Source: Moniliella sp. 'wahieum'
Lineage: Eukaryota
Assembly: GCA_003971905.1 (NCBI GenBank)
Contig: RSEE01000107.1
Span: forward strand, 1 to 64,000
Direction of reading: 5' to 3'
DNA length: 64,000 bases
Within the stretch, counting starts at the first letter, position 1; each line of letters opens with the position of its first letter. The notes below the pieces were generated by a model. That model did not search any database. It worked only from the letters and a program-made list of their open reading frames with translations, and was not told the origin of the DNA. The translations under genes and the position numbers were made by a program. This document shows positions 1 to 48,361 of this stretch, in pieces.

Positions 1-1206
1 TGATAGGAATCTTAATCACCTGTCACGTATCCCCCATAGCGGACTAGTGGGACCAAGGGTTCCGGTTACCGGCCTTACGAGAACGGCTTGAGTCTGACGC
101 CCCCCCCCCTCTTACCCCTGCGTCCTTGTCTCAGCTGACCAGGTCCTTTCGGGTGCCACGGTGGGGCTGTTTGGTAGACACTAGCATGCTGCTCTTTTTA
201 TGGCAAAAAGAAAGCATCATATGGACACCTCCCCGTGTGCCCTGTAGGCTTGTGGCTTATTTGGATGCCATTCATAGTCCAGCGTGCTCCCCCGGTAACG
301 TATTCGTGTTGTTGGTCTCAGATCTCACCATCCTCTCGCGTTCGGTAGCGCGTTCGTCCCTCCCAATTGGACAGAGGGGCAGGGTTCGTGTTCAGGACCG
401 CTGCCTGCCATCATATATTACGCGTTACGCGTTACGCCCGAGAAGCACAAAGAGGGTCCGAGAGAGAGGAGAGTGCTTGAGGAAGGTTCATGTGGAAGAG
501 GAGGATTCAATAGTCAATAGTCAATGTTTTCGTGTCCTTCGAAACCAGTGCGCCGTGTACTTCGTATCCTCGTACTGGCATACCATGTAGCCGCGCGACC
601 AACGCCGCTCCTCTATTATCTCCCCTCGAGTCCCCCGTGCATAGGTATTGACAAACCCGAGAAACGAGAGGATCGATGGAGCAACACGCGGAGCAGGAGG
701 GCTCGAATAGGTGTACCACATACCCTGGATTGGAGTCGAGCCGAGTGAGAGGGTTCAAGATAGAGGGGAGGAACGGAAACGGGAACAGAAACAGGAACAG
801 GAACACTGTACATGCGTACCGCCAACGCATCGAAGGGAAAAAATCAATGTCAATGTGAGCGTGCAGAGATTCGGACAAACGGGTGTGCAGGTGGATTAAA
901 CAGGATGAGATTGAGATTGATGAAGCCACACCAACACGAGAGAGAGAGGGTTCAAGTGTACACAAACTCATTCACCAGCTCACCAGCTCACCAGCTCACC
1001 AATGCAGCTCACCCGCAGAAAACGCACCCCAGCAACAAAAGAGGAAGAGAACTGACGCTTGCACATAACCAAAACAAGAGTCGCCTTCTCTCTATCCTCC
1101 GCTGTGCTCCGCTGTGCTCTCCGGTACTCTCCGGTACACTGCTGTCCCTTTTGAGTGTCGGTCCTCGTCCCTGCCTGCAATTGCGTTCTGGTCTTACGCC
1201 GACCTT

Positions 1207-3476
1207 TCACCCAAGCCCAAGCCCACGCCCACGCGACGCGACCACCCCCCGCCCCCACCGACGTGGTAAGGACCACAACGGTGTATCGGACGAGGCTCGC
1301 TCCACACGCCCCGCACCAGCACCAGCACCAGCATCCGCATCCGCATCCGCTCCCGCACTCGCTTCCCCAGCGCAGATCCCCACCGGGTCCGAAAACGACG
1401 ACGACAGCGTCGAAACCGATGACGAACCTACACGCACAGTCCGCGCCCCCCTCGACCTGGACCTAAAGCCGATGGCCCATCGGTCCCAGGTGGATCAGTT
1501 AGGTTGCTCGGGTGCGAACGTGAGGTGGGCGAGGGACTGGTCGTGTCGTGCACAAGTGCATTGGCCGTGGGTGTACCCGCTCCCAGACTGGGACTTTGGT
1601 CCTGGTGGTTGTGGTTGTGTGGCAGGAAGCGGTAGCCATCGGCCGGAAGAGTGGGCCAAGAAGAACGACTAACGTTGGTGGCTGTGATAGCTGTGGCGGC
1701 GGCACTCTTGCTCCCAAGAAGAGACAGCGGACTTAGCGAGGGAAAGGCGGTAAGCGTAGTGTCCGACGGGAGTGGAGGGGCAGCGGGACACGTCATCGGA
1801 CCAGAGTACCGGTCCCCTAACAACAACCTTCCCGTAGTACCGGCGGGACCAACGACGAATAAGGCATCCTCCACGCCCCCCCGGACGAGGCACGATCGTC
1901 TTCCGTACTCAACTCGAGCACCTCTTGCTCCGACGTACACTCCCCTCGCTTTGGCCGGGGTGGGACGAGGCCTAGTGCTGTGGTTTAGTTGAGGCCCCGT
2001 GGACGTCGTAGGATCGCACTCGCTGCCAGTCGCCTCGGAGGCTGATGGTACGGGTACTGGTGTCGGTGCTGGTACGGATGCTGGTGCGGGTGCTGGTGCG
2101 TTAGAATCCGTCGAGAGAAACGGGGCGAGAGAGCCAGTGGCGATCGAAGAACGCATTGTCGAGGGTCGATGCGATCCATCCGAAAGACCGCGCGGGCGCC
2201 AGGTACCCACCGAGGTACGCGATCGCGTCAGCCGACGCAGCTGGTACAACGACCCTGAGAGAAGACGCGCCGTGTCCGAGGCCCCATTCGCCTCCTCCCT
2301 CGACTGCCGTGGTGGCGTGGCCGATGGTGGCGTAGCCGGTGGTGGCGGGAGGGCTGGGAGGCGGACACGCTTTGGGTGTGCAAGGCGTTCCTGGGTTGGC
2401 CATGTTGGTCCCAGCCGGAGGCGAAGTGGACAGGTCAGCACCGGATGAACTTTCTGCACCGCGTGGACGTACGCCCAGGCGTACAGAGAGCGTGCGGGAC
2501 ACAGAGCGGAACCGGTTCAGGGAGGTGAGGGGCATGCGGATGGGCGTGCTACGAGCCGGCTCGGTCGAGGGAGAGAGACCCGGAGAAGGGGTACTTGGTA
2601 CCGGCAGACCGGAAGCCATTACAGGTTCAGGCACAGGATTCGTAGTGAGAGAAAGGTGCGTTTCGGCACCGAAAAGCCGACGCCGACGGAACGGAGTGGT
2701 CCTCCCGTGTCCATGGGACAGGTGTTGGGTGAGACTATGTTTGAGTTTGAGCGGGGCAACGGGTCTTCTTCGACCTGGTCGAGGAACGGCATGGGAGGCA
2801 TGAGAAGATGAACGGACCAAGAACGATCCGGTTCCCGTTACAAAAGGAACTTTACTTGACGACGACGACGCCCTCTCTCCTAACCGCGCAATAAAAGGCG
2901 CAGAATGGTGAGAGGACGGATTCCAGTTCCAGCCGCGCTCGACAAAGTAGGCCACTGCCTGAGCATGGGCAATCTCAGCCGCTAAAGCATCTTCACTGTT
3001 CCCATCGGGGACGCTATGGGACCCACCCAAATCATTGGTACCCTCCTGCTCCTCCCATTCTTCCGGCCCAGCGGCCCACGACGACGACCGGTTCCCCTCT
3101 TCGTCCTCCCCAGCCCAGGGGGGGTCGGATGCGTGCATCAGGTCCGATTCGAGCCTCGGCTCATCGTCCTCGCCACCCGACACCAACGTTGAGGAGGGCC
3201 TGTCAAACAAAGACGAAGACTCTCCTGAGAACGTCCGTGGGTGCTCCTCGAGGGGTGTGGTGTTACTTTGCCCACAATCGTCGGGGCTGCTGGTCCTACT
3301 CAGGGGAAGAGGGAGCGAGGTAATCAAGTGTTCGGGGTGGGTGGTACTGCTGGGGGGGACAGAGTAGCGACACAATGAGCGTGATGATGGTGCTCCTCAC
3401 CAAGAGAGCAGGTGTGTGATCCGGATTCGCTTTTTCTTGCAAGGGTGGGGGTGGGCGTAAGACGAGCGAGACTCAT
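1207..3476 (-). CDS. Hypothetical low-complexity (S/P/T/A/R-rich) protein, frameshifted
   Basis: Overlapping long minus-strand ORFs (3324-4166, 2101-3375, 1428-2459, 1207-1437) chain by frame changes into one disordered-looking protein. No domain recognised; the start is uncertain. Confidence 0.4.
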
Positions 3477-5088
3477 GCTGGAGAGGGCGCGTTCAGACGG
3501 ACGTTCGTCAAAGGAGACGAATTGCCAGTTGATGGGAGACTCGTGCTCCGCTACTGCTGTGCTGGGTGCCGGCTGGCTTTGGTGGGTGTCCGGGCGACGA
3601 GGAGGGTCGCTGTGCTGCTGCAACGAGGCTGCATGCTGAGATGAAGCAAGGACAGCGGGTGGAGAGGCAGAAGGAGAGGGCAGCGAATGCAGGGAGCGGA
3701 GACGCGGGGTGTGGGTGGGGTGTGCTTGTACTGCGGTCTGAAGGGGAGGGAGGGAGGGTGCGGCTGGGGGGCCGTTTGGTGGGTACGGGCTTGCGGACGG
3801 GGGCGGGGATGGGCATGGTGTGGTGTGGTGGTGGGGGTGACGTTGCGGGTGAGGTGGTGGGAGGGCGCGCCGATGGGGGGGTGACGCTGGGCGACGCATC
3901 CAACGGCTGTCTGCTGGTGTCGGACATGTGGGGCGGCGGGCATCGGACATGGGTGGCAGCCTGAGGCCATCGCGCCGCGGTCTGTCGGCTGTGCGATCAG
4001 AGAAGCGCAAGGAGGGCGCGTATATATTCGCAGGCTGCGACTGCCTAATCCGACCTAGCACCGCCGCACACCCGGAACCCCGCCGCACAACCGAACCCTC
4101 GCCCTCGCCCACCCACGCAGGCAGAGGCGCCGTGCCGCGTTGGCTGCCCAGACAGGTGCGCAGCAATTATAATACAACGTTGGCCCCCAAGTGCCATCGC
4201 ACCGGCTCTCACATCTCACCTATAGTAAGCTATTCTAGCACTACTCCCCGTCTCTGGCTTCGTCATCTTTCGCCCTCTTTCCCCTCTCTCTCTAAGGCCC
4301 AATCACGGCTGGGACGACAAGGGCACCGCGCCACTCCTTTTTGAGCCCCCGACCTTCACATGTCACATGTCACACTGCAACCTACCACACCAGAATAGGG
4401 CACCACAACCGCAACTGTCCTTCGAGAGGATAAATGAGAGGGAACGAAATGTTACAATGCGAGCGCGCGTACCGAATCTTCGCTTACGTGACAGGGCGAG
4501 ATGGAAACGGTTGTCGCTACACCCCCAAAACGCATCCACATGTGGGGATCAAAAAAGGGGAGAGATGATACATTACCCGCTGCATGCGTTCACAGTCAGT
4601 ACAAATGGCTGAGGACCGCTGAATCCTGTTGCAGGCAGCGAGGTTGGATCGCACACATGGCATCCCGGGCGCTGTTAACGGTCGCTGGACCTTGTGCCAC
4701 GTTCCAAACGATGGTGGTGAGCAAGGGCGAATGGAGAACAGGAAACGGAGCTTCTAACCCCGCATGCGTTGAAATCGAAACAATTCTAAATGTAAGCAGC
4801 AGCGTCATACGTCACAGATCACCCATCGTCATAAAGCTGATGCACTGATGGCACTGTTGGCTGCTGCCTGCTGATGGCATGCATGATGCATGATGCATGA
4901 TGCATGATGGCCTATCGCATCGATGTTCCCAGGGGTTACCGGTTAGGCCGCTTAGGCTGGTCTATCGTGCATCTTGCATCTAGTATCCCCATCCCCCATC
5001 TCCCGCTTCCATCGGCTGCGCCTCCTCCTTCTCTTCCTCTTCTTTTTCCTCCTCCTCCCCCTCTCCCGTCCCCTCCCCCCCCCCCAGC

Positions 5089-7069
5089 ATGGTACCCAGT
5101 GGGATCCCCCCCGCGGACCAGGAGCCGTTCAGCCCGCTCCCCCCCCCCGCTGGGCACGCGTCCGGTGCCCAGCAACCCACTTGCTGACTCACCCGCCTCA
5201 GCAAGCCAGTACGACACGCCTCGTCTCTCCTCCTCGCCCTCGGCCAGCGGCTTTGCCACGGCGGCTGCCTCCCGACACCACTCGAACAAGCCCTCGCTCT
5301 TGGGCTTCACCCAGGCCGACTTGGAGAACGACGTGCACGTCTCTACCTCGCAGCAATGGCCCGGCCATGACCCCGACCCTGACGCTGCCCTGCGTTCAGG
5401 ACACGTCCGCTTCCGCCCCTGGTCCGGCCCCTGCCGCCGCGACGCAGTCCCGCCTCTTGGTCGTGTCCAACCGTCTGCCAGTGACCATCAAGCGCGATCC
5501 TACCTCGGAGGGCGGATACACATTTTCTGCTTCTTCCGGAGGCTTGGTATCTGCCCTGGCTGGCGTTAAGAAGACCACTCCCTTCATCTGGTTTGGCTGG
5601 CCGGGATTGTCGGTCCCCCCTTCCGATCGGGCCTATGTGGAAGAAAAGTTACGGTCCGAGTACAGTTGCGAACCGGTCTGGTTGCCAGACGATGTGGCAG
5701 ATGGCCATTACAATGGGTTTTCCAACTCGGTCTTGTGGCCTCTGTGCCACTACCGCCCCGGTGAAATGAACTTTACCGAGGCGTCTTGGTTGGCTTACCG
5801 ACTGGCCAACTTGATGTTTGCCCAGCGTGTTCGGTCGGTCGCTCGGCCGGGCGATATGGTGTGGGTACAGGATTACCATCTGATGCTGCTCCCGCTCTTG
5901 CTGCGCGTACTGGTCGAGGGCAGCGGACAACAAGGACGTACCTCCCACCTCGGCTTGGAACATATTCGTCGTGGTCTCAACACCAACCTGTGCGTCGCCA
6001 CTGCTCTCGAAGAAGGGGTCGTGCCGCGCGTAGCGGACGATCCGTTGGAACAGGACGATCACCACCCTTTTTTCCCCCGTGGTGCGATCAAGATTGGGTT
6101 TTTCCTCCACACCCCGTTCCCGTCCAGCGAGATTTATCGGATTCTTCCGGTGCGGCGTGAGATTTTGGTGGGCATTCTGCATGCCGACTTGATTGGCTTT
6201 CACACCTACGACTATGCCCGCCACTTTCTCGCCTCTTGCACGCGCATTTTGAACAAAAAGGTCAGCCCCAATGGGTTGGCGTTCGAAGGACGTTATGTGC
6301 ATGTGGGCGCGTACCCGATTGGGATTGAACCCCAGTCGTTTTACCAAGCTTTGAAACGCGATCGTGTGCAACGACGCATCGCAGAGCTCAAAGCCCATTT
6401 CCACCAGAAAAAAATCATCATTGGTGTGGACCGGTTGGACTACATCAAGGGCGTACCCCAAAAAATGTTGGGCTTCGAGACGTTTTGCAACAGCACCGGG
6501 AATGGGAGGAAGCTTGTGTGCTCATCCAGGTCGCTGTGCCGTCGCGGCAAGATGTGGAGGAGTACCAGTCGTTGCGCTGCTTGGTCAATGAGATGGTAGG
6601 CAGGATCAATTCCGAGTATGGCTCGGCACTGCACATGCCCATCCACTTTCTCCATCGATCCGTGGACTTTGATGAACTGGTGGCTCTCTATGCTGCGTCA
6701 GACGCTTGCTTGGTCACCTCGACCCGGGACGGAATGAACCTCGTGTCGTACGAGTACATTGCATGCCAAGCCGAACACAAGGGCGTGATGATCCTCTCGG
6801 AATTTGCTGGCGCAGCCCAGTCGCTCAATGGAAGCTTGATCATCAACCCGTGGGACAAACAAGCAGTGGCCGATGCTATTGTCGAGGCACTCACCATGCC
6901 GCTCGAAACTCGCACGAAGAATGTAGACCAGCTACGCGCGTTTGTCGATAAACACACCGCCGCTTGGTGGGGCAATTCCTTTGTGCGCGACTTGCAGCGC
7001 ATCCGGGTAAGCAAGCTCCGCGCCTCCTCGCCCTTTGTCGGACGGCGGTCGAGCATAGCGCCACCATAG
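5089..7069 (+). CDS. TPS1: Alpha,alpha-trehalose-phosphate synthase (glycosyltransferase family 20)
   Basis: Motifs LLVVSNRLP, SSGGLVSAL, HYNGFSNSVLWPLCHY, VWVQDYHLMLLP, IGFFLHTPFPSSEIYRILP, GVDRLDYIKG, STRDGMNLVSYEY and LSEFAGAAQSLNG lie across ORFs 4974-6599 and 6485-7069, with a frameshift near 6485. The ATG at 5089 is inferred. Confidence 0.96.
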
Positions 7070-7075
7070 TAACAA

Positions 7076-7175
7076 CAAGTACCAAGTACCAAGGACCAAG
7101 GACCAAGGACCAAGGACCAAGGACCAAGGACCAAGGACCAAGGACCAAGGACCAAGGACCAAGGACCAAGGACCA
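7076..7175. repeat. Heptamer microsatellite (CAAGTAC)2(CAAGGAC)12
   Basis: Read directly from the sequence; begins 7 nt after the TPS1 stop codon. Confidence 0.98.
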
Positions 7176-8114
7176 GATGGAACACGAACTCGTTCCCCCG
7201 CTCCGAAGGCGGGGAGGAGGGGACGCGTGAGCAGTTACTTTACTTCCGTATGCAATCCCCCATTGTCGATGCACTCTACGATGGAAGCCGGCTCCGACAG
7301 AGATGGCAGTTGCTGGGGGCGGGTAAGAGAGTTGGATGAGCGCGAGCAGCAGTCACTGTGACATGTGCATGTGACATGTGACTTGCCATCAGTACTCAGT
7401 TTCACCTGCCGCGGTGGACGTGGGCCGTGGATAGAAGACATCACCCGTACTAACCGAAACTAAGCCCCACCTGCAGAGGGGCAGTGATCCAGGCGTGTGG
7501 ATAACTTGCTGGGAGTGGATACTGTCCCCGTGGCACCACATCGATCATCACCTATCGCCCATCACTAGCATGCATGCATCACTTGCACCACTGCTCACCG
7601 GTCACCGGTCACCGGTCACCCCTGCTCTTCATACTCTCTTGCTCCGTCACCGGGTCACCGCGTCAGTCCCCAATCATCAATCACCGGCCGCCGCCACTCG
7701 TCTCCACCCTTGTCCACCTCTGCCGCCACCGTCCCAGCGTTCTCTGCCGTCGTCCATCGTCCACCCGTGGAGACTTTGGGATGGAGCCATGGTGCGATGG
7801 CACGCACGCGGCAGCAGCAGCCGCACGAGGACGTTATGCGCGGAGAGTGTTCTCCTTGTTTCCACACGGCCCCTCCCTTGTCTAGCCTCGCAAAGAGCGA
7901 CGCCACCCGCTTCTACGACGACAGTTTTGTCTTATAGACTCTCGACGGCAGCTCTCCCCTCTTTGGGCACCGGGCTTCGTCGGCCTTCCTTCGTGCTTTT
8001 TTTGGCTCTTCTGGTCTGCTGCCACTCCTCCTACTACTACTGCTACCACTACCCTCCCCGCCCTCCGCATCCTTTCTTGCACGCGCTCGGCTCTCCCCAC
8101 CGTGGAACAACATC

Positions 8115-10738
8115 ATGAGCCCCCCCGGCCGGGGAGCCATGATCCGGTCCAGGGTGTGGCCACCCACAAGGCGCCACTCAGACACTCTGCGCCTTCCCCG
8201 TGGACCAAAAGGTACCCCTGCCACCACCAGACTGCAGGTGCGTTGTCCATCGTACGCGTTCATGCGTCCATACTATGGGCATCTCCTAGTTGGTGGCATT
8301 TTCCCCCCTCGCTCTTCCTTTTACGGCCTTCCCCTGACCCCTACCCCGCCCTCTTCCCAGGAAAAGGCACAGAGTTGGATCATGATCTCATCAAGCCAAA
8401 CTCCCCGCTTGGCTCTTCCTCTGCTTCTTGTGGCGACACACCAGGACCACTGCAAAGTGTAGGAGGAGGAGGAAGAGTGCTTCATCCCCACCCGGCCCGT
8501 CCCATCACGAACTGGACTTGGGGCCCGCCCCGCCGCCGCTGTTCTTCCTCCTTCTCAACGATCAGACTGGCCGGCTGTCCCTGGGCCCCAACACTTTCAG
8601 CGTCAATGCCCGAACCAGCGCCCGAACCAGCACCAGAACCAGCAGCAGAACCAACACCAGAACCAGCACCCGAACCGGAGTCGCGTCCGGAACCGGAACC
8701 AGAATGTGCCTGTGCACATGCGCAGTCCGGGTGGGAGGTTGGCCCGTCAAGCACTGGCAGGGCAGCCACTGCCCCCGGTTGGAGAAGCGTTGGGTAATAC
8801 CCCTCCCCCTCCTTCCCCCTTGAACCGGGCCCGTTCGACCAGCCATTCGACCAGCCAGCTATTCGAATAGCCCTTCAACCAGACCTGATCGCGCTCTTGA
8901 CTATTCCCTTCCCAACTGGGAGGAGGCGGGACAGTTGCCATCCGGATCTGGACCGCTGGTCCATCCGCCCACTTCCGTTTCGGTGAAGGGAGGGCAACGG
9001 ACTGAGGAACATGTACTGTGGGTGGGCAACTTGCCCAAGAACGTCCCGACTCGGGCCGGCGGGTCTGCCCCGTCGGATTGGGACCCGTGGCGGAACCAAC
9101 CCGGTGCGGGAGGGCAGGAGGGGGGTAGCATCACCGCGCTCCAGCTGTGGCATTTCCTCGAAGAAGGCGTCGTACCGCCGTTGCTGGTGCCGGTCGATGC
9201 GGGTCGTGGTGGTGGTGCAAGTGGTGGAGGTGGTAGACCAGGTCAAAATAAGTGCTCGGTGCCAGGTACGGACCATGTGCTGGTCCAAGAGGGCACCCAG
9301 CCGTCTCGCTGGGTTCCCAAGCCGGGGGGAGGGCGAGCGAGATTGTTCGCATCTCTGTTATCAAGGGTACGAATTGTGCGTTTGTCAATGTACGCACGCA
9401 TGAGGCGTTGCAGCGCATGGTTACGCGGTTGGATGGCGTTCGCCTACTCCCTCCGGTCGAGAAAGACCAGGCGCCGTTGGTGGTGCGCGTGCGCTCGAGG
9501 GAAGAGGAGGTGGATGCTTCGGTGCTGGATCAACGCAATAAGGGCCTCCACCAAGCGTTTGTGCGGGATTACGATCGTCGTCTTTGTATGGACGAGTGCG
9601 AGACGGCGTACCCTCCCCTTGGCCAGATGGAGACGGACACCGGAGGAGTGGGGGGGGATGACGCCGGCTTGGTCTCCGCAGAGGGGCAAGGAGGAGCAGG
9701 AGGGGGAGGAAAAGGGTTGCACTCAGACCAAATCGAAGGGACCGTTCGGGACCCCATCTTGGCCCATCCTGCGTTGTACCAACGGTTTTTCATTCTCAAA
9801 TCCCGTACCGTCGCTGATCTGCACCGCTCGGTCCAGTCGGGCCTCTGGACTACCCAGCGCCACAACGAGCACGTGCTGGACCAAGCGTTTCGTCACTCGA
9901 AACAGGTGTATCTGTTCTTCTCGGCCAACCAAGTGGGAGAATGGTTTGGCGACGCTCGTCTTGCTTTCTCCCTTGTCCCACTAGAGAGGAGGAGCAGGCC
10001 GAGCAGCAGGCGAATGACAGTCCCCTTGATCATATTGCCCCTTCCCCCACTCTCACTGCCACCTTGGCGACACCGACCACAGCCCCCAGTCCCGAAGGGA
10101 AAGTGACCTCTCCGCCGCTGGCCGCGCACCTTGGAGATGAGCGCCCCAAGGGCCGACGGTGCAAAGTTCCTCGGACGACGTATGCCTCGACGGCGTGCAG
10201 CGAAGAAGGAACCCAGATGAGTTGGCGTGGCGCTCCGCCCGTGCAGATGGGACAGCCGTTCCGAGTGGAATGGGTCCAGGTCGGTAGCATGCCATTTTAT
10301 GAGGCGCGCCAGCTGCGCAACCCTTGGCGTGACAACAAGCCAATCAAAGTGTCGCGCGATGGGACCGAGCTGGAACCAACGGTAGGTCGACGGTTGAAAA
10401 TGGTCATGGACACGTATGCTACCTCACCATCCTCCTCCTCCTCCGTCTCACCACCTTCTCCACCTTCTCCACCACCGCCCCTTGGTACTCCCCCAAACGC
10501 CCATTTGCACGTGCTGCCGACCCAACCCTCGCGACCTCTGTTGCGCCCTATCGTGTCTGCCACTCTTACTTCCTGCCCCAGCTCCACTTCGATGTCCACT
10601 TCGACTTTCACATCGGCTTCGACATCGGCTTCGACTTCGACTTCGACTTCAGTTTCAGCTTTATCGTCGCCTTCGCCTTGTCTCCCGTCCATGTGTCGCA
10701 CAAGTTCCTCTTCCACCCCTGCCTGCCTCTCGCGGTAG
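8115..10738 (+). CDS. Fungal RRM + YTH (YT521-B-like) RNA-binding protein, frameshifted
   Basis: RRM pieces HVLWVGNLP and ISVIKGTNCAFVNV. YTH pieces RFFILKS...SVQSGLWTTQRHNEHVLDQAF...VYLFFSANQVGEWFG and GQPFRVEW...LRNPWRDNKPIKVSRDGTELEP. These lie in ORFs 8935-9984, 9252-10106 and 9941-10738. The 5' end is uncertain. Confidence 0.88.
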
Positions 10739-11157
10739 CTTTCCACGGGGATGCCAAGCTGCGTGGCCAGTACGAGCTGGACCCAGCCCGCATATGAGAC
10801 TGCCAACAATGTTGCGGTCAAGATTGAGGGGGACCGCTGAGGCAAATACTGAGCCCCGTTTTCCGCGCCTCGTCATCGTCGTCGTCTTTTATCAGCGAAA
10901 ACCGAACCTCGCCCCTCACTCTCGTAGCCCGACAAATTTGCTTTGTTTTGCTTTCGAGGAACTTGGCTGTGCCAGGACAACGGGAACGGTATCCACACCC
11001 CGGCACTGAAGAGCGCGGGCGCGGACAGGTGAATTTATCGATTTCTATATCCATCTACTATATCTCGGGATGGGGCCGTATTAGCCAGGTCGTCCACTAC
11101 TTGTGCACTTGTATGCATGGAGACGGGTCCAGCGCGGTTGGATTCAGCCTTCCCACC

Positions 11158-11250
11158 TCGTTGGTCCTTTGTCCTTCGTCGTTGGTCCTTTGTCCTTCGT
11201 CGTTGGTCCTTTGTCCTTCGTCGTTGGTCCTTTGTCCTTCGTCGTTGGTC
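11158..11250. repeat. 21-bp minisatellite (TCGTTGGTCCTTTGTCCTTCG), about 4.4 copies
   Basis: Read directly from the sequence: four perfect units plus a partial unit. Confidence 0.97.
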
Positions 11251-11740: not shown

Positions 11741-11851
11741 AGAAGCTCGACAATAAAAAGGAGGGACAACAGGGACAAGAGACGACAAGGGAGTTGTTGA
11801 GCTCAACTCAGGTCCACAAGGTACCACCCACCCAAGGCGAGGTTGATTGGA

Positions 11852-28931: not shown

Positions 28932-30387
<1,456 letters not shown>

Positions 30388-36604: not shown

Positions 36605-39600
36605 AGTGCTTCAGCAGAGGCCATCAATGCTTGAACCTGAGAGAAATATGTTAATGGCGGCCGAAAAGCAGCAATGATGGGGCTTTCTCACTCAATATTC
36701 GTCGTAATCCCGATTGACAACTTCGATTGATCAGGCTGCCTTTCTTCGCGGAAGTGGAAACGAAGTCAGGAGCTTTCGCCGATGGCAAAGGTGTAATCCG
36801 TCGTGTAGCTTTGTTCCAGTTCGCTTGTGGTTAAAGGAGTGGTGGTGGTCGGATAACAAGAGGGGGAAAAGAGGGGATGGTGCCACGTAATTCCTAAGCA
36901 AAGGAGTGAACGACGACCGACCAATGAGATGCCTTGCTATAGTTACTCCTCATATACCCACATTGATTGATGACCATCATCGATGATGATTGATGAAATT
37001 GACGGAACAAAAACCGGCCGGCCCCAATATCACATTGCATCTCAGGGATCTCAGGGCCATCACAAGTCCTAATCATCGGCCATCTCACATGTCACATCCG
37101 ATCGATATCGCCCGATACCGGTCACCGAGGTCATCGAGGTCATCAGTGCTCAGTACCAGTGCGCTGCTCAGTACTCAGTATTACTCAGTGCCAGACCATC
37201 TGTCCCACACACTCATGCTGCATCTTTCTTTGTGCCTTGAAGCTTAGAGCTTGACAGCCTTGGCTTGCTTGCAGTGAAGCTGGGGAAGCTGGAAGCGAAG
37301 AGACTCCCAGCTCTTCCCGTCCGCTCCCCCGTGTATGTGGCCACAGCAGGCTCCCCACAAAAATTCCCCAACAAAGTGTATATATATGGTAATGGGGACA
37401 TGCTTTTTGGGGTACCAAAAGTGGTTCTCTCTCTGATGTTCATGTTTTTATTGGCGTACAGCGGCTATACAACACGTGAAGTAACAAAACGTTGAACCCG
37501 CTGCCATCACTAGGATTGTCTGTGCCCTTGGGCAAAGGAGATACCTGAGCGCATCAGCATTTCCGTATTTGTGCCTGGCGCTTCGCCATCTTGGAGACCC
37601 TTAGGCTTGAAGCTTGAAGCTTCAGCGCTGAGGCTCAGCGCTACGACCCATGTGTGATGTACATGAGGCACAGGATGCCGGTAAGCACTTGAGGCCATTT
37701 CAGGGAAGCCTCAGTACCTCAGGGCCCGTTTGAGTGCCTGGAGCCATCATCCATTACGTGCTTCCGTCTGTCTCTGTACGGTGTGGTATACAGATAGATA
37801 CCATGACTTGTCGAAATGGGACCAAGGGGGGGCAGACACATAGTATGCTGGTCACACAATCATTAGCCACTGTCAAGTGGGAAGGGGATATGATATGTGT
37901 AGGACGTCGTATATAGCAATTAGAGCACATTCTACACAGGGGCCTCTCCCTGAACGTTGAACTCTGAGAGCTTAACCTTCTTCTTCCAGCTTCAAGCTTC
38001 GAGAGCTTATAACCTTCTGCTTCCTACAGCTTTTCAAGTTTCCTAACTTCAGCTTCAAGTCCGCCCCAATAGAAACGTATCCTACACGATAGTACTATAC
38101 AGACGTCAATATGCCACCCGTCACACTCACAAGTCACCTACTGCACCACTCGTTTTGATGTGAGATGTGAGATCTGAGAGAGTGCTCGCGCTCCAGGCGA
38201 CTGAGTACACCGAGTACACTGAGTACACTGAGTACACTGAGTACTGAGTTTCAGTATTGTGAGTACCTGAGTATAATACACTGAGTACTGACCGGTGACC
38301 GGTGACCGACGAATCTCTGCAGGCACTACTTTCTCACATTGTGTATTGCTGGTTCCACATGTCACACCGTGCATCACCGGTCACCATTTGTATCGTTCTT
38401 AATTGTTCGGCATCCCACTGTCATAGTTTGGCTGATCTCGCTCCCATTTCCAATTTCTTCGTCTTGAGCGTCTCGCTCCTTCCCTGTTCCTTCCACTTCG
38501 CACCATGTCCTCTGTTCTTGCTTCTTCCCCACGAACGATTGCTACACCCCTTGGCCTAGTCCGATCCTGGTCTCCCTCGCCTTAGCCCCGACTGTGACAC
38601 CCACGGCGCCTGTTTACGTCGAGCACAGAGTAGCGAGTATCTGAGGACTGACTAGTGACTGACAAGGCGCACGCTTCTCTGTGCGCATTCTGAGGCGTGT
38701 TGGACCTGATCACCCTTTGGCGTCTCCCATATATTCGTATCACTCCATGAAGACTCTGTGCTCCGTGCTCTCCGCCGCTTTAGAGCGCCCAACGTACTCG
38801 ACGCCACAGCCTTTTCAGTATACTCATCGGCATGTAAGGACATATCTTGCACGGAAACGTCAGTGAGGCCGAGGCCTGACGGCGAGATCCTATGCACTAT
38901 GCCTGATTCCTTCGGCCGGACATTCGAGGACTTGATAATGTGTTGCCAAACTGTGCCTTCGTGTGTATCACGGCGCGGACCCCTGCTCGATGGGGCCGCT
39001 GCTGTGGCAAACCCTCGACAAACGAACCCATGCTGAGCGCTCAACTGGGCATACCCTAAAAAAGCCCAACGTCACGCGTCATTAATCATTATGGATGGTG
39101 TCTGCAACGTGCCTCTATCACGTGCGCGCCCTTCCTGCTATTCCGTGGCGTTACTCATCCTACGTTTCCCCCATTCTTCTCATTCCGTCCTTAAACAACA
39201 CGATTGAGTAATGGCATGTACACTCCGTTGCGTGCAAATGGATCATTTTCCCTTTCCATTACAGCCCCTTGGGAATTGAGCTTCCGGATCTGGGGTCTTA
39301 CGCCCCCGGTCCATGCGCTATACGCGTTACATGTTGCAGGCTCAATGAACCGTGACGCGTGACTAGTGACTTTCGGTATTGAATGTGGTCTATCCTTTTC
39401 CAAAACGGAGAGAACCCCTAAGGCCTAAGGCCTAAACCGTGGGTCGGACTCCGGAAACAGTCTGGTCAACAGGTCTGGCCCCACTCCGAGATCAGATCGA
39501 TCATCGATCACTAGTCACTAGTCCTAGTCACCATACACCAAGTGTGCGTCACATGCCACAGGACGAAGATGCGCAGCAGCCCCTGGAAAGATTTCCGTTG

Positions 39601-41637
39601 GTGCCGCTGTGCTGTGCTTACTAGCCTTACTACTCTCGGCTTTTGAGATCAGCCAGTGCTCCGTCGCGTGCACGGGAGCTACCTTCAGCTGAGTGGTATT
39701 GCAACCGACCACAGCCTGGCCGCTTGCCTATATTGTTGCATGGCTCGCGGGCCTTTGCCTCTGTTTATATAAAGACCCGCCTCTGTCCTAAGAGTACATT
39801 GGAGGCAAAAGCGACCAATCGGCTTGTTCTAAGTCCTCATCGATCATCCCTAACAAAAAACTGTTCGACGTCCTCCCTCAGCACCGCCTTCGCTAGGGAT
39901 AGCACAAGGAGAACTACCTCAATTGTGCAAGGCAGAGGGAGCAGGGACAGCGACTCTTTGGTACGACAAGCTCGCGCTTCGTGCCTACGCCAGGTCCCCT
40001 TTGCTGAAGGAGGAGTGGAATGGAGGATGTGGTTCTGAGGAGAGGTACAGGAGGCTATGAGAAGGGTAGGGCCTTATATAGACGAGAGTACCGCGGAGCT
40101 GAGGAAGCTTCCGGGCGGATAAGAGGGGTGATGACTATCACGCAGGATGGCGTGATTGGGGCATCGCCCCAACACCCTTGACCGACGAGCCAGAGTGTTC
40201 GATTCCTCTCGGCCTCCGTCAGGTGAGGTTGTCATCGCCAGGGAGGCCACACCATTACACCGTTACACATATGTGGCCAAGGGCGACAGGTAGCAATGCC
40301 TTATCGGCATATTGGGCACCACAGCTCTCGCCTTAGATACTCAGAACATCGCTATATAGCAGTCGTATCATTTACAGAGGTTTTAGCTTACAACTAGTAA
40401 CTACACAATATCGGGTTGATATTACCGAAGATGCGCATAGCAGCTTGTCGAACTGCATTGGGATGTGGCATGTGATATGTGGCACAAGTGTCATGCATGT
40501 CACATCAGGAAAAGAGCCGTTCCCTTCATGCATCGTGCGTCAAAAGCGTGCCACCGCGTCATCAATGATTCAGAACCGTCAGAGATTTCAGACACGTCAG
40601 ATCGTTAGACGTCAGCGCGTCAGTGCGTCAGATCTCCAATCCATTAACAGATTTCTGAAGTACGCAACAGCAATATTCAGGCCTCAGGGGCCTCAGGGGC
40701 CTCTCAGGGGCCTCAGGCTTCAATTAATTTAAGCACCAGTTAGGCCACTTGGTAAGGACACCATGCATCAGACATCATGCATCATGGAGATCCGAGTTCC
40801 CTCTGTGGAGCAGTGCTCAGTTACTTAACCCTACAGTATGAACCAAAAATGACTGACGGGCCAATGAATAATGGCTAAGCGCTAAGCGCCAACTTAGATG
40901 TGAGGTCCGAGGCTCCCTGAGGCAGAATAATCATATCGATGATCGAGCTATATGATTGAGGCTTAATGTAACTTGATTCAATCGTCTCTCTGCTTCTTCG
41001 GCTTCGTTTGGGTCATTAATCATTGGTCAGTTACCCTCACAGAGGTCTCGAATGTTGCTCCGCCTTGTTACTCCTGATTTCGAATCGTCTAAAGGGAAAA
41101 GGATACGGGAGGCAGAGAGGGGGTGCAGAGTTGATAGCGAGCAAGGGGCGCAGCCAGCCAGTGGAACTCTTCCCCCGATAAGCGAGCGTTACCGATCAAT
41201 TTGAGGACCATGTGGGGGAACCCTATACTCACTATACCATCTTCTCACACACTGGTGAGACCGAAGACCTCGAAAAAAATTTTGTACATCAGCCAAAAAG
41301 AACTGCAATTGGTACTAAGCCACAATACCGCTTTGGTCACTAGTACTTTGTACTATCTTCGAAGTCAAACATGATACATGCATGGTGCATGACATATAGG
41401 CTTATAGCAGAGTATATACATTGAGCGTAGCCTTCGCCCCACTCTACACCCACAAACTTATTTCTTGATTGCCCGTCAGCGCGTCAGCGCGTCAGTCGAC
41501 ACTACTCAGTGGTGAAGGAATCACATTTTTGTGGGGGCGTCTCCAGGAGGGCTTGTTCAGTTGGTCCAACCCTTTACGCGTTTTTTGAATATGCAGTGGA
41601 AAAGCGCGTGGAACGATGGTGGAACGTGATCAAAATG

Positions 41638-41850
41638 TGTTGAGCTATCGTCAGTTCCTCCTCAGGCCTGGGAGTTCCGCTGTTTTCTCTCTCTGTTTTT
41701 TCTCCTTGTTCCGCAGCTTAAGCCCCTGGTGGCGGACTCTGCTGCTTGATGTTTCTCTGTAGGCGTTGATGGTTACAGTAGTAGTTAGATCACCACTATC
41801 ACCAGTGACTTGCATCACCTCGAGGACCATCAGGACTCCAGGTCTCATCA
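41638..41850. mobile_element. Solo LTR, family A, copy 1
   Basis: TGTTGAG...CTCATCA termini, similar to 46968-47203 and 59041-59271. Flanked by (A)AATG on both sides. Confidence 0.85.
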
Positions 41851-42133
41851 AATGCATCGTCAAAAGCTTCCTCACGCGACGACGGCTTGTTTTTCGATAA
41901 GGTTATGTTCGTCAGCAGGGACACCAATGGCCTGTAACATGTAACAAAGCGATGCTCGATGATGCAGATGATGGGCATGGTCAAACAGGACACTTCTTCC
42001 CCCAAAATTAACCCTGCAGGAAGATTGGGGAGTGATCTGAACATCAAATGTGAACATCAAGCGTACTAACGCGTAAACTATCATGCACACACAAAACATG
42101 AAAAATTGTGATTGACTGACACAGGGGAAACGA

Positions 42134-42905
42134 TGCCATGGGGTTGGCCCTGGTTGGCCCGCCCGGGGGCTCGCCTGGGTTTATGTGGGGTACAATACCT
42201 TCGGAGGCGGTAGGTCGACTCACGGTAGTTTCGGTCTTGGGCTAGTTGGTGGATATGAGCGGAGCTAGGGACGAGGAGAGGCCTTTCGTGGGGCGGCTGA
42301 ACGTGTGGCAAGGCCGAGTATGCACCGGCTTGGGCTGTAGTATCTGAAGGCTGCGTGGCTTAGGGACGGGTAGAGGCAGTGGCGGAAAAACACTGCCAGA
42401 GCTGAGACTGGACAGGGACGGCTATCGAGGTGGCTGGAATGGAGCCCATGCGAGGAGCTGGCACCGGAATCGACGCGGTTGAAGGAAGGCTCGCGCGACT
42501 GGATGGATGGAGAGCTGGAGGACGAGGTCGGAAGAGGAGGTGTGGAAGCTAAGTGGAGAGGAGGCTGCCGGTACTGAATCAATTGGCTGGAAAATGGGCA
42601 GGAGCTGGACAGGATAGACGGGAAGGGACGAGAAAGGACGGGGTAAAGACGAGAGAGGACGAGAAAGGTAGATAGACGAGAGACGAGAATGGAAGATGGG
42701 GAAAATGATTCCCATCAATCAGGGGTACAGGCTGGATCAAAGGGAAAACGGATACAATAATGGGGTGTAGAAAGAAACACACGTCAAAAAAGGGGTTGGT
42801 CGTTGCAGGCGCACCGAGAAAGGAAAAGGAAGCGGTGACGGAGGCGACAGTCGCCGCAAAGATACCGAAAGTCCGATGGCCCTATTTAGGTCATCCGACT
42901 TGGAC
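42134..42905. mobile_element. LTR-like repeat, family B, copy 1 (right boundary uncertain, may extend to about 43172)
   Basis: Colinear similarity to 47612-48340. Shared blocks include GGAGCTAGGGACGAGGAGAGGCCTTT, GTACTGAATCAATTGGCTGGAAA and AAGGGAAAACGGA. Confidence 0.75.
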
Positions 42906-44190
42906 TTGGGCGGGGGGCGACTATGCCGCACGGATGCATCCCCTCGGGCCGCACCGTACCTGATTTAACCAACCATCATCGGTCATCACTCACACTTGGT
43001 TGCACTTCGGAGCGGGCCCTACTGGGTATGTGCATAGCACAGGCAGGATCGGACCATCTCGAATCCAACACGGCCCGTAACACGGGGTGGGGCAGGGGCG
43101 GGGGAAGGAGAAGTTGACAGCATTCCCCGCGAGTGGCACTCACTTCATAACCGTCCATCTCGGGTACTACCACCCCCCACTATGGAACCGGACAGGAGTT
43201 GTATCGACAACATCGCCCGCCTTCCTCTCTTAACCTCTTAAGGCCAACAACAATGAAAGCTCACTTCTTCTCCTTACCGCCTTTTACGTCCTCCCCCCCT
43301 CTCCCTCCCCGTGAAGGCAACATGCTTGCCTTGACGAGCATTAAATAGTAAGTCCTACTTAGTCACACAAATGGCCAAAGGGCAGTCTCGTCCCTGTTCT
43401 AGATCTTCCTCGACCCCTTCGTGTCTCTCTCCCTCTTATCACGCGCACGTCTCGTTTACCGTGTGATTGCTTCTCCTTTTCCTTTGGTATATATTACAGG
43501 CACCATTCCATGGAGCCTGAATGAATACCATCGGCATGATTCAAAGCAATCTCTTTCCTACATCAGCACATATTTTCCAGACTCTCTACGGTCGATGAAC
43601 TTGTACCAAATCTACAGCGCTGGCACTGGGTAGAGTGCCTGCTGTATGTTATTGCCCGCTCAGCTGAACCTCCGATGCTATCTCATGGTTGCGCCCCTAT
43701 CTGCATGATGAGAGGGACATAGAGGAAGTAGTGCCAGAATCCGCCAATGCTCTGAGTCAATCCTGCCATGTTTGGGTATATCAGGGCTTGTTACCGCTAT
43801 AATCCCTTCAAACTTGCTCTTCCCTTCCCCCATTGGCCTTTCCCTTGAGTTTGGCCATCGATGAGCCCAACGTGTCCATTTCGATGTGGCCTTTAGCCAA
43901 CACATAGAGGGTCCAGCAACTGCGCCAGCCCGGTGGACAACCCACACAAACGGGAGACCAAGAGCAGAAGGAAAGGCACTACACATGAGTGCATACGGCG
44001 TACACAACGATGATGGTCCACATGACGTGGTGTGGTGTGGCGCGGTCAGGCAGGCGATAGAGAGAACGACGGCTCAAAGGGGCACACAAGAGGAAAATAC
44101 GTGGGGTACAGGGACGAGCAAATGGAGATGCCGCAAGCGGCAGAAACAACAACAACAAAACATGCCTAACACGCATTGCCAAGGGCAGTG

Positions 44191-45734
44191 CTAGGCTTCC
44201 GCAGAAACAAAGGCGGTGGGGTACTTGTTCGCGTCTTCGTCCATCCGACTGACCGGATCCTCCTCGCCCCGTGGCGTGGCCATGGCGGAATCAGATGCAG
44301 GAACAGGATTGGAGGCACTCTCTTCTGCTTGCTCATAGTTCTCTACCCAACCTAGGTAGGACTCAGGCACCAAACCGCGCAGAAGCGCACCCTCCTCACC
44401 AGGCGCGAACTTCTCGACAATCGCCCATCCGCCTTCGAGGGAACCGACCACCAGGATGCGCTCGCCAACGAGGCAACTAAGTTCGTGCCCGCTTTCTGCC
44501 TCGAAGGGGTACATCACTTCGTATTCCCCCAGCGCGAGGGGGCAGTTGGCAGCCTCCTCGGCTGCGGCAATTGCCGCAGCCGCTTCGTTCATGGAGGTGT
44601 GCGGATCGGCGTCGTAATCTTGGTAGGATAACCTCTCGTTTTCGAGCAGTTCCAGCCGCTCGGCTTCAGCTTGCCTAGCCAGCGCTGCGACAAGATCCGG
44701 GTGGGGCTCTCCCACATGCCGCGGATCTTGCGCCGCAAACGCGAAATCACGCACGACCAATTTTTCGTCCTCCTCTTCATTTTCTTCTTCATTCTCTTCT
44801 TCCTTCTCTTCTTCATCGTCCGATTCGGGGGATGGCTGAGCGACGACCGGCACAGGGGCGGCTAAGTTGCTCGCCTGTCGTTCTGTTTTCTCGGGAGGGA
44901 GAGCATCTTCCGCGTCCAAGACAGAAAAGGTGGCAGAGTTGGTAAGGGCGCCTAGGGGATGGGGGGAGGCAGGCGAGGAAACCAAGCGGTGCACCAGCGG
45001 GGGGAAGTGGGTTTGGTGCACACTGTAATGCCGCACCAACTTCTGCGGCGCGACGCGGGGCGGTAGTGCACACACCTCCCACTTCTCCCCAGTGCCCCGC
45101 TTCGCCTCCCTGGTGGACTTGGACCGACCCAACTGCGGGGGCGGGGGGGGAGCCAAGGACGGTTCTTCCTCGGATGAGGACGGAGACCGCTCCCCCTTCT
45201 CGCCGGGGTGGGATGGGGTTAAGGGGGGAACGGCTTCCTTCTTCTGGGCAGCCTGATGTTCGTGTTCGTGTTGGCGTTCATGCACCTGCTTAAGCACCTG
45301 TCCTCGTTCTTTCTCCCGCTCCTTCTGATGGCCATGCTCCAGCTCGGGTACGGGGTTGTGTGCATGGTCAGATGCCTGCGTCTGGGCCTGTTCCTTCTGC
45401 GCCTGTTGTGCCACACGACGTGGCGGGGGGGCGGGAAGAAGGGCCCACGGGGAAGCCTGGTCGGGAGGGGGATGAATCCACCGGAGGGGCTGGGATAGGC
45501 GCGAGCAGCAGCGGCCAAGGCGGCATCGGCATCGGTTAGTGGGACATTGGGTTCGGGTTCAGGTTCGGGTGCGGGTTCGGGCTGATGCTCGGTCTCCGAG
45601 TGGGGTTGGGGTTGGGGTTGGAGGGGGGATTGAGAGCGGGGGTGGGATTGCGGATGGGGATGGCGGGGTGGAGGCGCGGGATCTGAATCCGAATGCCGGG
45701 AAGAAGAAGGGCGGGGATTGGGTGGGGGGGGCAT
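44191..45734 (-). CDS. NBP2: Nbp2/Skb5-like SH3-domain adaptor protein with long disordered N-terminus
   Basis: VVRDFAFAAQDPRHVG (Nbp2-type pre-SH3 motif) is followed by the SH3 YEVMYPFEAESGHELS...GGWAIV...GLVPESYL. Frameshift near 45425; the start is uncertain. Confidence 0.8.
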
Positions 45735-46399
45735 GGCGCGAGACGAAGTGGGGGGGGGGGCGAGGGCGGTGGGGATGGTGGGGATGGTGGGGATGGTAGG
45801 GTTGGTGGGGATGGTAGGGTTGGTGGGGGCGGTGATGGGGGCGATGGCGATGACGGTGACGGTGGCGATGGCGGTGGCGATGGCGGGGGCCAAGGTCGGG
45901 CGGGGCTGCTAGCCGCGGGAAGCAGCTTCGCCGGCGCATGGCCGGCACCCGCTCGCGTGCGTTGGCGCGGCTTACCTCAGCCGCATCGAGGGGGAGCGCG
46001 GACTGCAGGCGGCTGCGGTGCTGAGCCAACCCTAGCGGGCGCGCTGCGGGCAGCACGGGGGCGCTGGCGGGCGGTGGGCGCCCCCTGGCATGGTGCATGG
46101 GTGCATGCGCCGCCGCCACTCGGGCGTGGCTGGCGCCACGGCGGCGGCGTCAGGCGGCGGGGCGAGTGCGGCGCAGAGCGAGCAGACGCAGGCGGCTCGG
46201 CGCCCCAGCGTGAACATTTCACCGCCCCCATTCCTCTCGCGTCACACGTCGCGCCGCCCCCGCACCCGCCTGTCACGGTCCCTGTAGCTAATTAGGTAAA
46301 TCTTCGCACCGCCCTTCGCCGATCCTGCTCTCCTTGCTGCTACCAGTGCATCCGTTGCTTCCCTTGGTGCTTGGCCTCAGACTCGTATCGCCCGACTCT

Positions 46400-46930
46400 T
46401 ACACCGCCTGAGCCACTAAAGCAGATCGGAAATGGCCTTTCCGTACATGGTACAGCTGGCTTGCCAGGTGCAAAAGGACCCAACGGGAGACCCAGCAAAA
46501 CCAACAAACGGGTCGCAAACACACCAAGAGAGGCGCCAGAGGCAAGAGAGCCAACTACAACGCCAAGCGCCGTCTCGCTTGTCCTATTGCATAACCTTCT
46601 TTTCATGCCCAGCGGCAAAACTCAAAGCACGAGGTTCTGTTGATACTGTGTCAGGGAGCTCCGGCCCAATATGCACCTACCGATAGGGATCTACAGCTGA
46701 CGGGCGTCGCTAAGCGCAAATAGGACATGCCAATACGGACACCCCGACCAGTGAGTGACAGCGACAGTCTTCCCTATAAACTAATGTGTCACATCCGGCT
46801 TCAACGTTTGGCTCACAACCTCCACCACAATGCGGTAGGACGCTCCCTCAAGGCTCGAGACGCGTGGGGTCCGGTGCCCCTCGGATCATCATGTGAGTCC
46901 TGTCAAGTAGCAAGCAGAAATTTATTGTGA
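46400..46930 (+). pseudogene. Possible highly decayed non-LTR (LINE) reverse transcriptase fragment
   Basis: PGAKGPNG resembles the KAPGPDG motif. RPVSDSDSLPYKLMCHIRLQRL resembles the RPISL...YK...RL motif. They are in the expected order but degenerate. Confidence 0.4.
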
Positions 46931-46967
46931 GGCCTGAGGGTTGGACTCATGCTTCAGGTAAGGCCTG

Positions 46968-47203
46968 TGTTGAGCCATCACGTGGCTCGTGCTTTGGCCG
47001 TCACTTCAGTTCTTCCCAAGGCCTTGGAGTCCCGTTGTTTTCTCTCTCCTGATTTTCCTTCTCCCGCAGCTTAGCCCCTGGTGACGACTCGCTGCTTGAT
47101 GTCTTCACTCTATACTAAGGCGTTGCTGGTTGGATTAGACCACAACCACCGCCAGTGCGATTGCATCACCCTCGAGGACCATCAGGGCTTCAGCTTCTCA
47201 TCA
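46968..47203. mobile_element. Solo LTR, family A, copy 2
   Basis: TGTTGAG...CTCATCA termini with a perfect 5-bp target-site duplication GCCTG (46963-46967 and 47204-47208). Confidence 0.92.
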
Positions 47204-47611
47204 GCCTGAGGCCTCACCTGAGGGCCATGCCATGGGCCCCATCCCCACAGATGCGGTCACGCCTTTCGCATCCTGACCCCTAAACTGCACCCCGTTACAT
47301 TGAGGTCCTATCCTAGGGCCCGGGGTGCTAACGCTAAATAGACAGAACATAGAGAGCCTAGTTGATCGTTCTAGAATTGAGCTCTTGAGCTATGTAGCCA
47401 GTTAAATCTCTCTGTACGGCGAGGATGGCGTACTTCCCGAACCCACATGCCACTCAAACAATATAGGCAGCCTTGCGCTCTTACGCAAGCCAGGTTGCGG
47501 TCTACACAAACAGTGACAACGAGAGAGAGAAACGTACCAATTCAAGGGCCTTACCTATGTTGTAATATCGGGTTCTATACAGCGCAACGAGACACCCACC
47601 ACACTATAATA

Positions 47612-48340: not shown

Positions 48341-48361
48341 AGTTGGTGTTGTATTCGTTCA

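Follow-up and report, generated by a model that had tools for sequence, protein, structure and literature searches.

Excision footprints carrying P (palindromic) nucleotides have been described for the hAT element Ac/Ds in plants, S. cerevisiae and C. albicans (PMC5873905). Hairpins on the flanking DNA are known from Transib, RAG1/2 and the MULE transposon Muta1, and are opened by an Artemis-like nuclease of the host (PMC5499845); for Pso2 and Artemis, the position of hairpin opening lies 2 nt 3' of the apex (PMC3299998). The duplication made at the target measures 2-5 bp in the CMCT clade, whose ends read CA..TG (PMC12730594), 3 bp in CACTA, and 7 bp in hAT7 and Kyakuja (PMC12730594, PMC4158355), the latter two making it in basidiomycetes (PMC12730594). 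The available text of PMC12730594 contains no mention of footprint, hairpin or Ustilaginomycotina. In Ustilago maydis, '10-bp repeats' have been suggested to be transposon footprints (PMC4081816). In this study, we analysed a 64,000-nt stretch of the genome of Moniliella sp. 'wahieum' (GCA_003971905.1), referred to as the window, whose intergenic DNA holds many short palindromic arrays with a period of 7 nt. We report that these arrays are probably the accumulated excision footprints, or scars, of a cut-and-paste DNA transposon lineage with a 7-bp target centred on the triplet TNA, and that what appear to be young copies of this lineage are still present.

The assembly comprises 69.5 Mb in 223 contigs, and the window is C107:1-64000 (contig RSEE01000107.1). 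The trehalose-phosphate synthase of the window had its best matches (56-65% identical) in Jaminaea, Parajaminaea, Violaceomyces, Microstroma, Exobasidium and Ceraceosorus, and the host is therefore a smut-related basidiomycete. Four versions of the region are present, namely C107 with its colinear allelic contig C63 (3.9% substitutions) and a second allelic pair, C58/C60 (3.4%); the two pairs can be aligned to each other only in coding DNA, at ~70-83% identity. On the assembled sequence, the four haplotypes represent a hybrid or doubled genome. Since allelic contigs are present, the birth of scars could be observed by comparison of alleles.

The basic motif is written TNA-xy-y'x'-TNA-xy, where a prime denotes the complement, and uv stands for the two bases upstream of TNA. 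The window contained 86 occurrences, where local dinucleotide shuffles gave 0.4, and 424 kb contained 467, where shuffles gave 2.0 (overlapping units and both strands included in the 467); the ANT, CNG and GNC versions were near chance (8, 12 and 13 against 3.0, 7.6 and 8.1). An initial annotation of the window had listed arrays of units of the form A-(4-nt palindrome)-T-N, all of which are present, at most a few bases displaced. The window has 44 exact period-7 runs with a length of 14 bp or more, and 23 of them consist of such units, with 12 different cores; one further run has a palindrome starting with C, none has one starting with G or T, and 20 are non-palindromic. The enrichment over other palindromes extends to 603 kb from more than 40 contigs, where palindromes starting with A, G, C and T numbered 203, 6, 4 and 3, beside 218 runs with none. 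All 16 palindromic cores occur, unevenly, from AGCT (64) down to TATA (2). Across the genome, 224 motif sites were counted in 179 kb over 57 scattered loci, 34 of which held at least one site. None of 135 scars fell in conserved coding blocks (12 kb, 9.9 expected). Extrapolation from 0.83 scars per kb in the 603 kb, which is a non-random sample, gives a genome total of ~58,000. Within the window, 59 scar clusters of the 7-, 8- and 9-nt classes, 937 bp in total, lie at 316..62604, against 0-1 clusters in each of 10 shuffles.

The two TNA copies of a motif are direct, with the same N in 406 cases against 16.8, and seldom inverted (40 against 13.6). Fold-back synthesis along the alternating dyads, proposed earlier as the maker of the units, is rejected because it would invert N. 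Period-5 AGCT-N runs had also been assigned to the pattern and show no enrichment (35 against 33.7 and 79 against 79); the period-9 AGTACACT-G array does belong to the same process, as its 9-nt class.

Alleles were aligned over 389 kb, and 4,273 of 6,574 indels had clean flanks. Clean indels of 5, 6, 7, 8 and 9 nt numbered 74, 82, 126, 47 and 47, with a spike at 7. The 126 seven-nt indels comprised 28 tandem unit changes (20 of them in arrays obeying the rule), 36 non-tandem births obeying the rule and 62 that were neither. Among non-tandem 7-nt indels with a 5-6 nt overlap, 36/43 carried the reverse-complement dinucleotide (p about 4e-26 against 1/8). A birth converts TNA-xy into TNA-xy-y'x'-TNA-xy, the general form being TNA-xy-y'x'-(uv)-TNA-xy. 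Slippage, which the initial annotation had considered insufficient, does enlarge existing arrays; as a full account it was discarded, whole tandem units being found in the 28 growth events and not in the 36 births.

The number of birth-type events in the 389 kb rose to 60 when indels whose flanks were less clean, and those of the 8- and 9-nt classes, were counted too. T stood at -5 in 56 of them, A at -3 in 55 and the full TNA in 51, orientation having been picked to favour TNA wherever both orientations parsed; N was C or G at 37 of the 51. An anchor-based count, which involves no choice of orientation, gave rule outcomes at 23/10,780 TNA site-views against 0/66,035 at ANT/CNG/GNC. Births account for 46 of the 434 clean allelic indels of 5-12 nt. 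Between haplotypes there is one birth per ~230 substitutions. Polarity was read from dispersed repeats, in which the long form occurred in 1/33, 1/11 and 1/3 aligned copies; the polarisable births are insertions (3/3, a small number). Scars also arise within copies of long terminal repeat (LTR) elements.

The duplicated unit was delimited in the 603 kb by allowing for the bases upstream of TNA. Periods 6, 7, 8 and 9 were found 46, 378, 68 and 60 times against 11.2, 3.5, 2.5 and 0.5, and periods 10, 11 and 12 collapsed to 3, 3 and 1. As the enrichment ends beyond period 9, the duplicated unit is uv-TNA-xy, 7 bp. Double-palindrome scars, uv-TNA-xy-y'x'-v'u'-uv-TNA-xy, were present in 6/22 eligible 18-mers against 0/77 at control triplets, and one of them is polymorphic between alleles. 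Palindromes on both flanks, together with the 7-bp limit, point to two ends, both holding the whole 7-mer and both lengthened by an inverted copy of 2 nt. This geometry most likely reflects an excision footprint in which the two flanks were sealed as hairpins and then opened at a distance of 2 nt from the tip. A gene with a DRMBL domain was detected in the genome. Stems of other lengths numbered 35 against 33.7 (1 nt), 5 against 0.3 (3 nt) and 0 (4 nt). Compound arrays containing two different palindromes (n=14) had both flanks as predicted in 10 cases and one flank in 4, with none in shuffles, and are consistent with one TNA being visited more than once. Plain 7-bp duplications at TNA were not in excess (1/10,780 site-views, that one inside an existing array), nor were +2 palindromic insertions (4 at TNA against 7, 11 and 16 at controls) or double substitutions that perfect a palindrome (52, with about 55 expected), and no 2- or 4-nt duplications linked to TNA were found in the allelic comparison.

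A candidate source was identified in a low-copy 4.9-kb family with CTCACTG ends and terminal inverted repeats (TIRs) of at least 40 bp, the TIR having been read to 40 bp. The ends were read after a pattern search, and the genome was then searched by TIR alone, which gave 11 matches against 0 for a control sequence. The copies are:

C11:228241-233089, full copy
C23:154552-159519, full copy
C29:72158-77127, full copy
C34:500340-505284, full copy
C35:43991-48846, full copy
C20, partial copy, a 378-bp derivative
C149, partial copy, a lone end
C16, partial copy, a diverged end

Matched 7-bp target duplications surround five copies (C23, C29, C34, C35 and the C20 derivative), and 14/14 flanks of the family read NN-TNA-NN with N = C or G. 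C29, C34, C35, the left end on C20 and C16 were found by patterns containing the target site; the unbiased sites (C23, both C11 flanks, C149 and the right end on C20) fit NN-TNA-NN in 5/5 cases, with a chance of ~0.05 each. The five full copies are 99-100% identical over the central kilobase, against 3.4-3.9% divergence between haplotypes, so the family moved far more recently than the haplotypes split. The 1 kb sampled of the 4.97-kb element has short, shifted and broken reading frames with a C-x2-C motif, and because of these broken frames the surviving family was probably moved in trans. Words in the frames recall EnSpm transposases; no Pfam, homologue or Atlas search confirmed the likeness. 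Three LRR-type matches of frame fragments were judged spurious. The flanks of the C11 copy both read NN-TNA-NN but differ from each other, as would result from recombination between copies or aberrant transposition, and on the left of the C23 copy the element directly adjoins sequence that reads as an older scar of the 9-nt class. A 117-bp miniature inverted-repeat element (L093:2238-2731; C60 ~113514-113631), with a 15-bp TIR and polymorphic between alleles, was ruled out as the scar source by its 2-bp duplications (CA, CA, CG).

The following sequence of events is proposed. Insertion would take place at uv-TNA-xy, with N mostly C or G, and duplicate those 7 bp, as seen around the surviving copies. 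Excision would then seal both flanks as hairpins with no base lost, and each hairpin would be opened 2 nt 3' of its tip, which matches the biochemistry of Pso2 and Artemis. The products would be 4-nt palindromic 3' overhangs, xy-y'x' and v'u'-uv, each beside a TNA. The product classes suggest that end joining overlays both overhangs on one 4-nt gap, giving TNA-[one palindrome]-TNA with a net gain of 7 nt; minor products would be +6, +8 and +9, or +11 where the overhangs are joined end to end. The scar would itself be a new target, with repeat visits giving the compound arrays and slippage enlarging arrays, both of which are present as patterns. The recurring mutational process at TNA that the initial annotation had suspected, with hairpin opening and a transposase, is supported by the data, the duplication being 7 bp (NN-TNA-NN) and not the 3-bp TNA it had named. 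The scars are most likely neutral by-products, retained where insertions are tolerated. More tentatively, and as a possibility we would not bet on, an undescribed DDE lineage (EnSpm-like protein, 7-bp TNA target, RAG-like blunt flank hairpins) may have moved through this fungal lineage for so long that it has become a chief source of mid-size insertions in promoter DNA, perhaps now driven by a transposase copy fixed in the host. If so, tens of thousands of excision products would be stored in the genome as in a natural library, defining the cleavage chemistry of a clade, and a new birth route for microsatellites and palindromic binding sites would be at hand.

Several results weigh against attributing the scars to this transposon lineage. 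Excision was not observed, and no site was found both filled and scarred. Active transposase was not found either, in genome profile searches that do not handle introns and frameshifts, so that their negatives are weak: hAT (PF05699) and KDZ (PF18758) gave 0 matches in the genome and none in control genomes, Harbinger (PF13359) gave 0 with controls matched in 1/14, MULE (PF10551) gave 0 with controls matched in 3/14, and Plavaka and DUF4218 gave 0 each. Tnp2 (PF02992) gave two matches, both outside the TIR copies:

C17:557080-557560, Tnp2-domain frame, open over 351 codons, broken in the allele on C62
C34:514890-515210, Tnp2-domain frame, open over 251 codons

A homologue search with the Tnp2 frame returned none, and the C17 gene was rejected as a member of the TIR family, its locus lacking the family ends and one allele being broken. 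In ~1 Mb sampled, 9 raw candidates for TIR elements with a 7-bp TNA duplication were obtained, none of them credible, and those large insertions between alleles whose ends could be recognised were, in the sample, LTR elements with 5-bp duplications. About 7 element copies stand against the ~58,000 extrapolated scars, an imbalance that would be compatible with a low-copy element hopping for long along lines of descent. CA/TG half-sites are commoner in element targets than in scars (6/16 against 11/102, p 0.012; 4/12, p 0.05, with the repeated target counted once), and three unrelated loci of the family (C35, C29 and C34) have the same 7-bp target, which is unexpected from a loose NN-TNA-NN preference. 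Given these differing target spectra, other family members or a host enzyme copy may have written most of the scars. Among the births, 9/60 lie at one-off triplets, mostly with T or A kept, 4/6 nine-nt events overlap by 8 nt and not 7, and polarity rests on 3 events only. Finally, many 1-nt indels are present in the assembly from which the scars were judged.

The scar-to-element ratio and the different target spectra are also what would be seen if a host enzyme, a domesticated transposase or a topoisomerase-like nuclease, made a 7-nt staggered cut at TNA, followed by fill-in, hairpin sealing and rejoining with no element inserted; the TIR family would then merely have the enzyme or the site preference in common. 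The 351-codon Tnp2 frame, open at a single locus without family ends, could encode such an enzyme, but its allele is broken, and a 7-bp duplication with hairpins requires strand transfer or an equivalent protein-linked end. The near absence of plain 7-bp TNA duplications (1/10,780) and the lack of a +2 palindromic excess also argue against this explanation, which we consider unlikely, and the biases of SPO11 do not match. SPO11 favours G at -3 in mouse, and A at -4/-5 and C at -2 in yeast, and leaves a 2-nt overhang (PMC11922745, in its available text). A dyad-symmetric SPO11/Top2 cut at the fold point was dropped, as the bias differs and neither TNA-linked 2-/4-nt duplications nor +2 P insertions were seen. 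An error on one strand during replication or repair, inserting a 7-nt mini-hairpin through nicking, displacement of the strand, folding back or template switching at a TNA mini-loop, and religation, could write the 7-nt class taken alone, as a y'x'-TNA-xy insertion, and short template switches between inverted repeats occur in yeast (PMC8604942). It is strained by the palindromic additions on both flanks of one scar, which it does not predict; nor does it predict the sharp 7-bp limit, the missing 1-, 3- and 4-nt stems (35 against 33.7; 5 against 0.3; 0), the absence at ANT/CNG/GNC or an element with the same 7-bp site, and palindrome-perfecting double substitutions are not in excess (52 against about 55). 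We regard it as very unlikely.

The initial annotation had put forward selection for a chromatin or promoter element. Such selection, acting on binding sites or structural DNA that slippage would spread, is not needed to explain the arrays and is highly improbable as their origin. The density of arrays is high in the long intergenic DNA upstream of genes, and coding blocks lack them, with the uneven core usage noted above (AGCT 64 to TATA 2), as selection might produce; however, the local flank dictates the core, all 16 palindromes occur, 19 of the 58 covered clusters of the window (about a third) have no counterpart in the allele, and scars are born inside LTR copies as well. Single scars may have been co-opted secondarily. 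A base-calling or assembly artefact, to which we give hardly any credence, would draw on the excess of 1-nt events (2,498 of the 4,273 clean allelic indels), which together with several frameshifted-looking genes suggests uncorrected long-read errors, and on evidence taken from the assembly alone. Against it, 39 of the 58 covered clusters are scarred in the separately assembled allelic contig too, 28 of them identically, as judged from assemblies alone, coding blocks are avoided, and the flank-templated rule comes in several classes. Excision of a transposon with a 7-bp TNA target thus remains our preferred reading.

Scars are unevenly distributed along the window, with 2.8-4.8 clusters per kb in the gene-free parts at 19.5-21.6, 23.4-25.9 and 36.6-42.1 kb and 0.12 per kb in the retroelement-rich 47.2-64 kb. 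The individual features are:

418..436, TTA-CGCG array with three TNA copies
4356..4374, TCA-CATG array, one unit shorter in the allele
4882..4909, TGA-TGCA array, one unit shorter in the allele
4934..4945, single 7-nt scar, not in the allele (birth caught)
7389..7400, TCA-GTAC scar
~7448, 24964, 25227, 40962 and 46976, empty targets with a 7-nt scar in the allele
7595..7620, TCA-CCGG array, not in the allele (30-nt gap)
13570..13591, 8-nt class scar adjoining a 7-nt class scar
13750..13761, single 7-nt scar, not in the allele (birth caught)
14883..14896, 9-nt class scar, the entire 7-bp target duplicated plus 2 palindromic bases
19707..19727, TGA-ACGT array, same in the allele
19892..19910, TGA-CATG array, the ACACGT units upstream being a one-base variant
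20064..20068, empty target TNA-xy, with a 7-nt scar in the allele
20105..20123, period-5 AGCT-N run, of a class not enriched and probably outside the system
20344..20367, TAA-TCGA array, two units shorter in the allele
20415..20435, TCA-ACGT array within a longer degenerate run
20960..20981, two adjoining scars, the first not in the allele
23844..23855, TGA-AGCT scar
25101..25122, 7-nt and 8-nt scars with one common TCA
37606..37619, TGA-AGCT scar or array
38220..38249, period-9 array, an expanded 9-nt class scar, then a 7-nt scar
38280..38307, compound array TGA-GTAC-TGA-CCGG-TGA, with left-flank and right-flank palindromes, the same TNA hit twice
38374..38385, single 7-nt scar, not in the allele (birth caught)
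39070..39090, compound array TCA-CGCG-TCA-TTAA-TCA, second unit not in the allele
39351..39371, compound array TGA-CGCG-TGA-CTAG-TGA
39417..39435, TAA-GGCC array, longer in the allele
39499..39519, compound array TCA-TCGA-TCA-CTAG-TCA
40874..40887, TAA-GCGC scar
41474..41494, period-8 array, an expanded 8-nt class scar
46443..46454, 7-nt scar at the one-off target GTA (not TNA), not in the allele
47207..47223, period-12 scar, a single case that may be read as a longer, 5-nt palindromic addition

A non-palindromic period-7 array of 14 units lies at 7076-7175, and 70 nt of it are missing from the allele. Ordinary genes occupy 4956-45558 (trehalose-6-phosphate synthase, a YTH-domain protein, a polysaccharide (chitin) deacetylase, an ammonium transporter and an SH3 protein), with an RNase H-like frame among them at 25901-26842. 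A 181-bp solo LTR with a 5-bp duplication at 38419-38599 is not in the allele and is very young, the 40 scored copies being 98-100% identical; the 173-bp TG..CA insertion with a 5-bp duplication at 40002-40174, also not in the allele, is another solo LTR. The retroelement-rich block at 47200-60500 holds hardly any scars and includes a reverse transcriptase-RNase H remnant (48634-49185) and a segment inverted relative to the allele (57309-60046). Outside the window, a long inverted duplication of coding-looking DNA at C58 ~178400-180960 (and on C60) is common to both alleles.

No description of the pattern was found in the literature covered, with subscription journals, Repbase Reports and supplements outside that coverage. 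A single array unit served as seed for at least 121 metagenome loci, of which 80 were examined; in this weak test on prokaryote-heavy data, no second genome with the scar grammar was found; 313 kb of these loci held 16 further scars against 6.8 in shuffles (0.05 per kb against 0.83 here). The AAGCTT-G/C heptamer array occurs also in other fungal-looking contigs and between bacterial genes (L163, L165, L169, L199, L209, L226), and on L165/L171 two look-alikes of the 8-nt class adjoin an AAGCTT-type heptamer array.

Knowledge of excision footprints usually comes from events produced in the laboratory, a few hundred in number. The present genome is a natural one in which they appear to be fixed, at ~0.8 per kb, and they still segregate between haplotypes; their regularity allows target length, hairpin geometry and opening position to be read. 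They would give a whole class of tandem repeats a transposon-driven origin, offer a means to map past sites of a nearly vanished element, and caution against reading such palindromes as regulatory motifs. The initial annotation knew of no described mechanism; the general one, P-nucleotide excision footprints, is already known, though not described in the form and on the scale seen here. The TIR family is a concrete, testable element, and its 7-bp duplication and the even-centred scars match no described superfamily rule.

RAG P nucleotides are even-centred. Microsatellite slippage changes the unit number in existing arrays, and template switching gives inverted micro-copies; neither accounts for a fixed, TNA-centred birth of 7 bp. 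The scars have the features of an excision footprint, with the target duplication on both sides of the junction and the same 7 bp as around the element, flank-templated P additions (36/43), double palindromes indicating that both ends passed through a hairpin (6/22 against 0/77 controls) and a derived insertion relative to the empty site (3/3, a small number). As in the published account of Ac/Ds, so far as available, there is duplication on both sides, short flank-templated palindromes, hairpin opening, end joining and few dominant products. Ac/Ds palindromes are odd-centred, on the complement of one base, the one next to the element, whereas the scars are even, xy-y'x', with no apex base, and hAT (Ac/Ds, hAT7) was rejected on this rule; unlike Ac/Ds, the present system also has a 7-bp duplication, a strong TNA centre, a single dominant +7 product and tens of thousands of natural scars that seed arrays. 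With Muta1 the element has in common an end that begins with an imperfect palindrome, but Muta1, as far as described in the text available, makes 8-9 bp duplications and mostly excises precisely, against 7 bp and no MULE domain found in the genome search here. MULE membership, for which a duplication of 8-10 bp, a TIR >100 bp and PF10551 are expected, was rejected on the 7-bp duplication and 0 PF10551 matches, with the TIR read to 40 bp. The element recalls EnSpm by the CACTG within its terminus and the C-x2-C motif in the sampled frame; EnSpm/CACTA (CMCT) was rejected on the 7-bp duplication in five matched pairs and the CT..AG ends, CACTG starting at base 3. Kyakuja (KDZ), for which a 7-bp duplication, CA..TG ends and no TIR are expected, fits in its 7 bp and was rejected because TIRs are long here and, in the text available, absent from Kyakuja; PIF/Harbinger was rejected because a 3-bp TNA/TWA duplication is expected and 7 bp was found, with PF13359 at 0 (control 1/14). 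The U. maydis 10-bp repeats, compared by description only, are likewise small intergenic repeats, come from a related group of fungi and have been interpreted as marks of earlier transposon activity, but the available text (PMC4081816) states no sequence rule, palindromic additions or source element. As tested, the scars thus fall outside the membership rules of hAT, CACTA, MULE, Harbinger and Kyakuja, but the excision they resemble is that of the hAT/RAG type.

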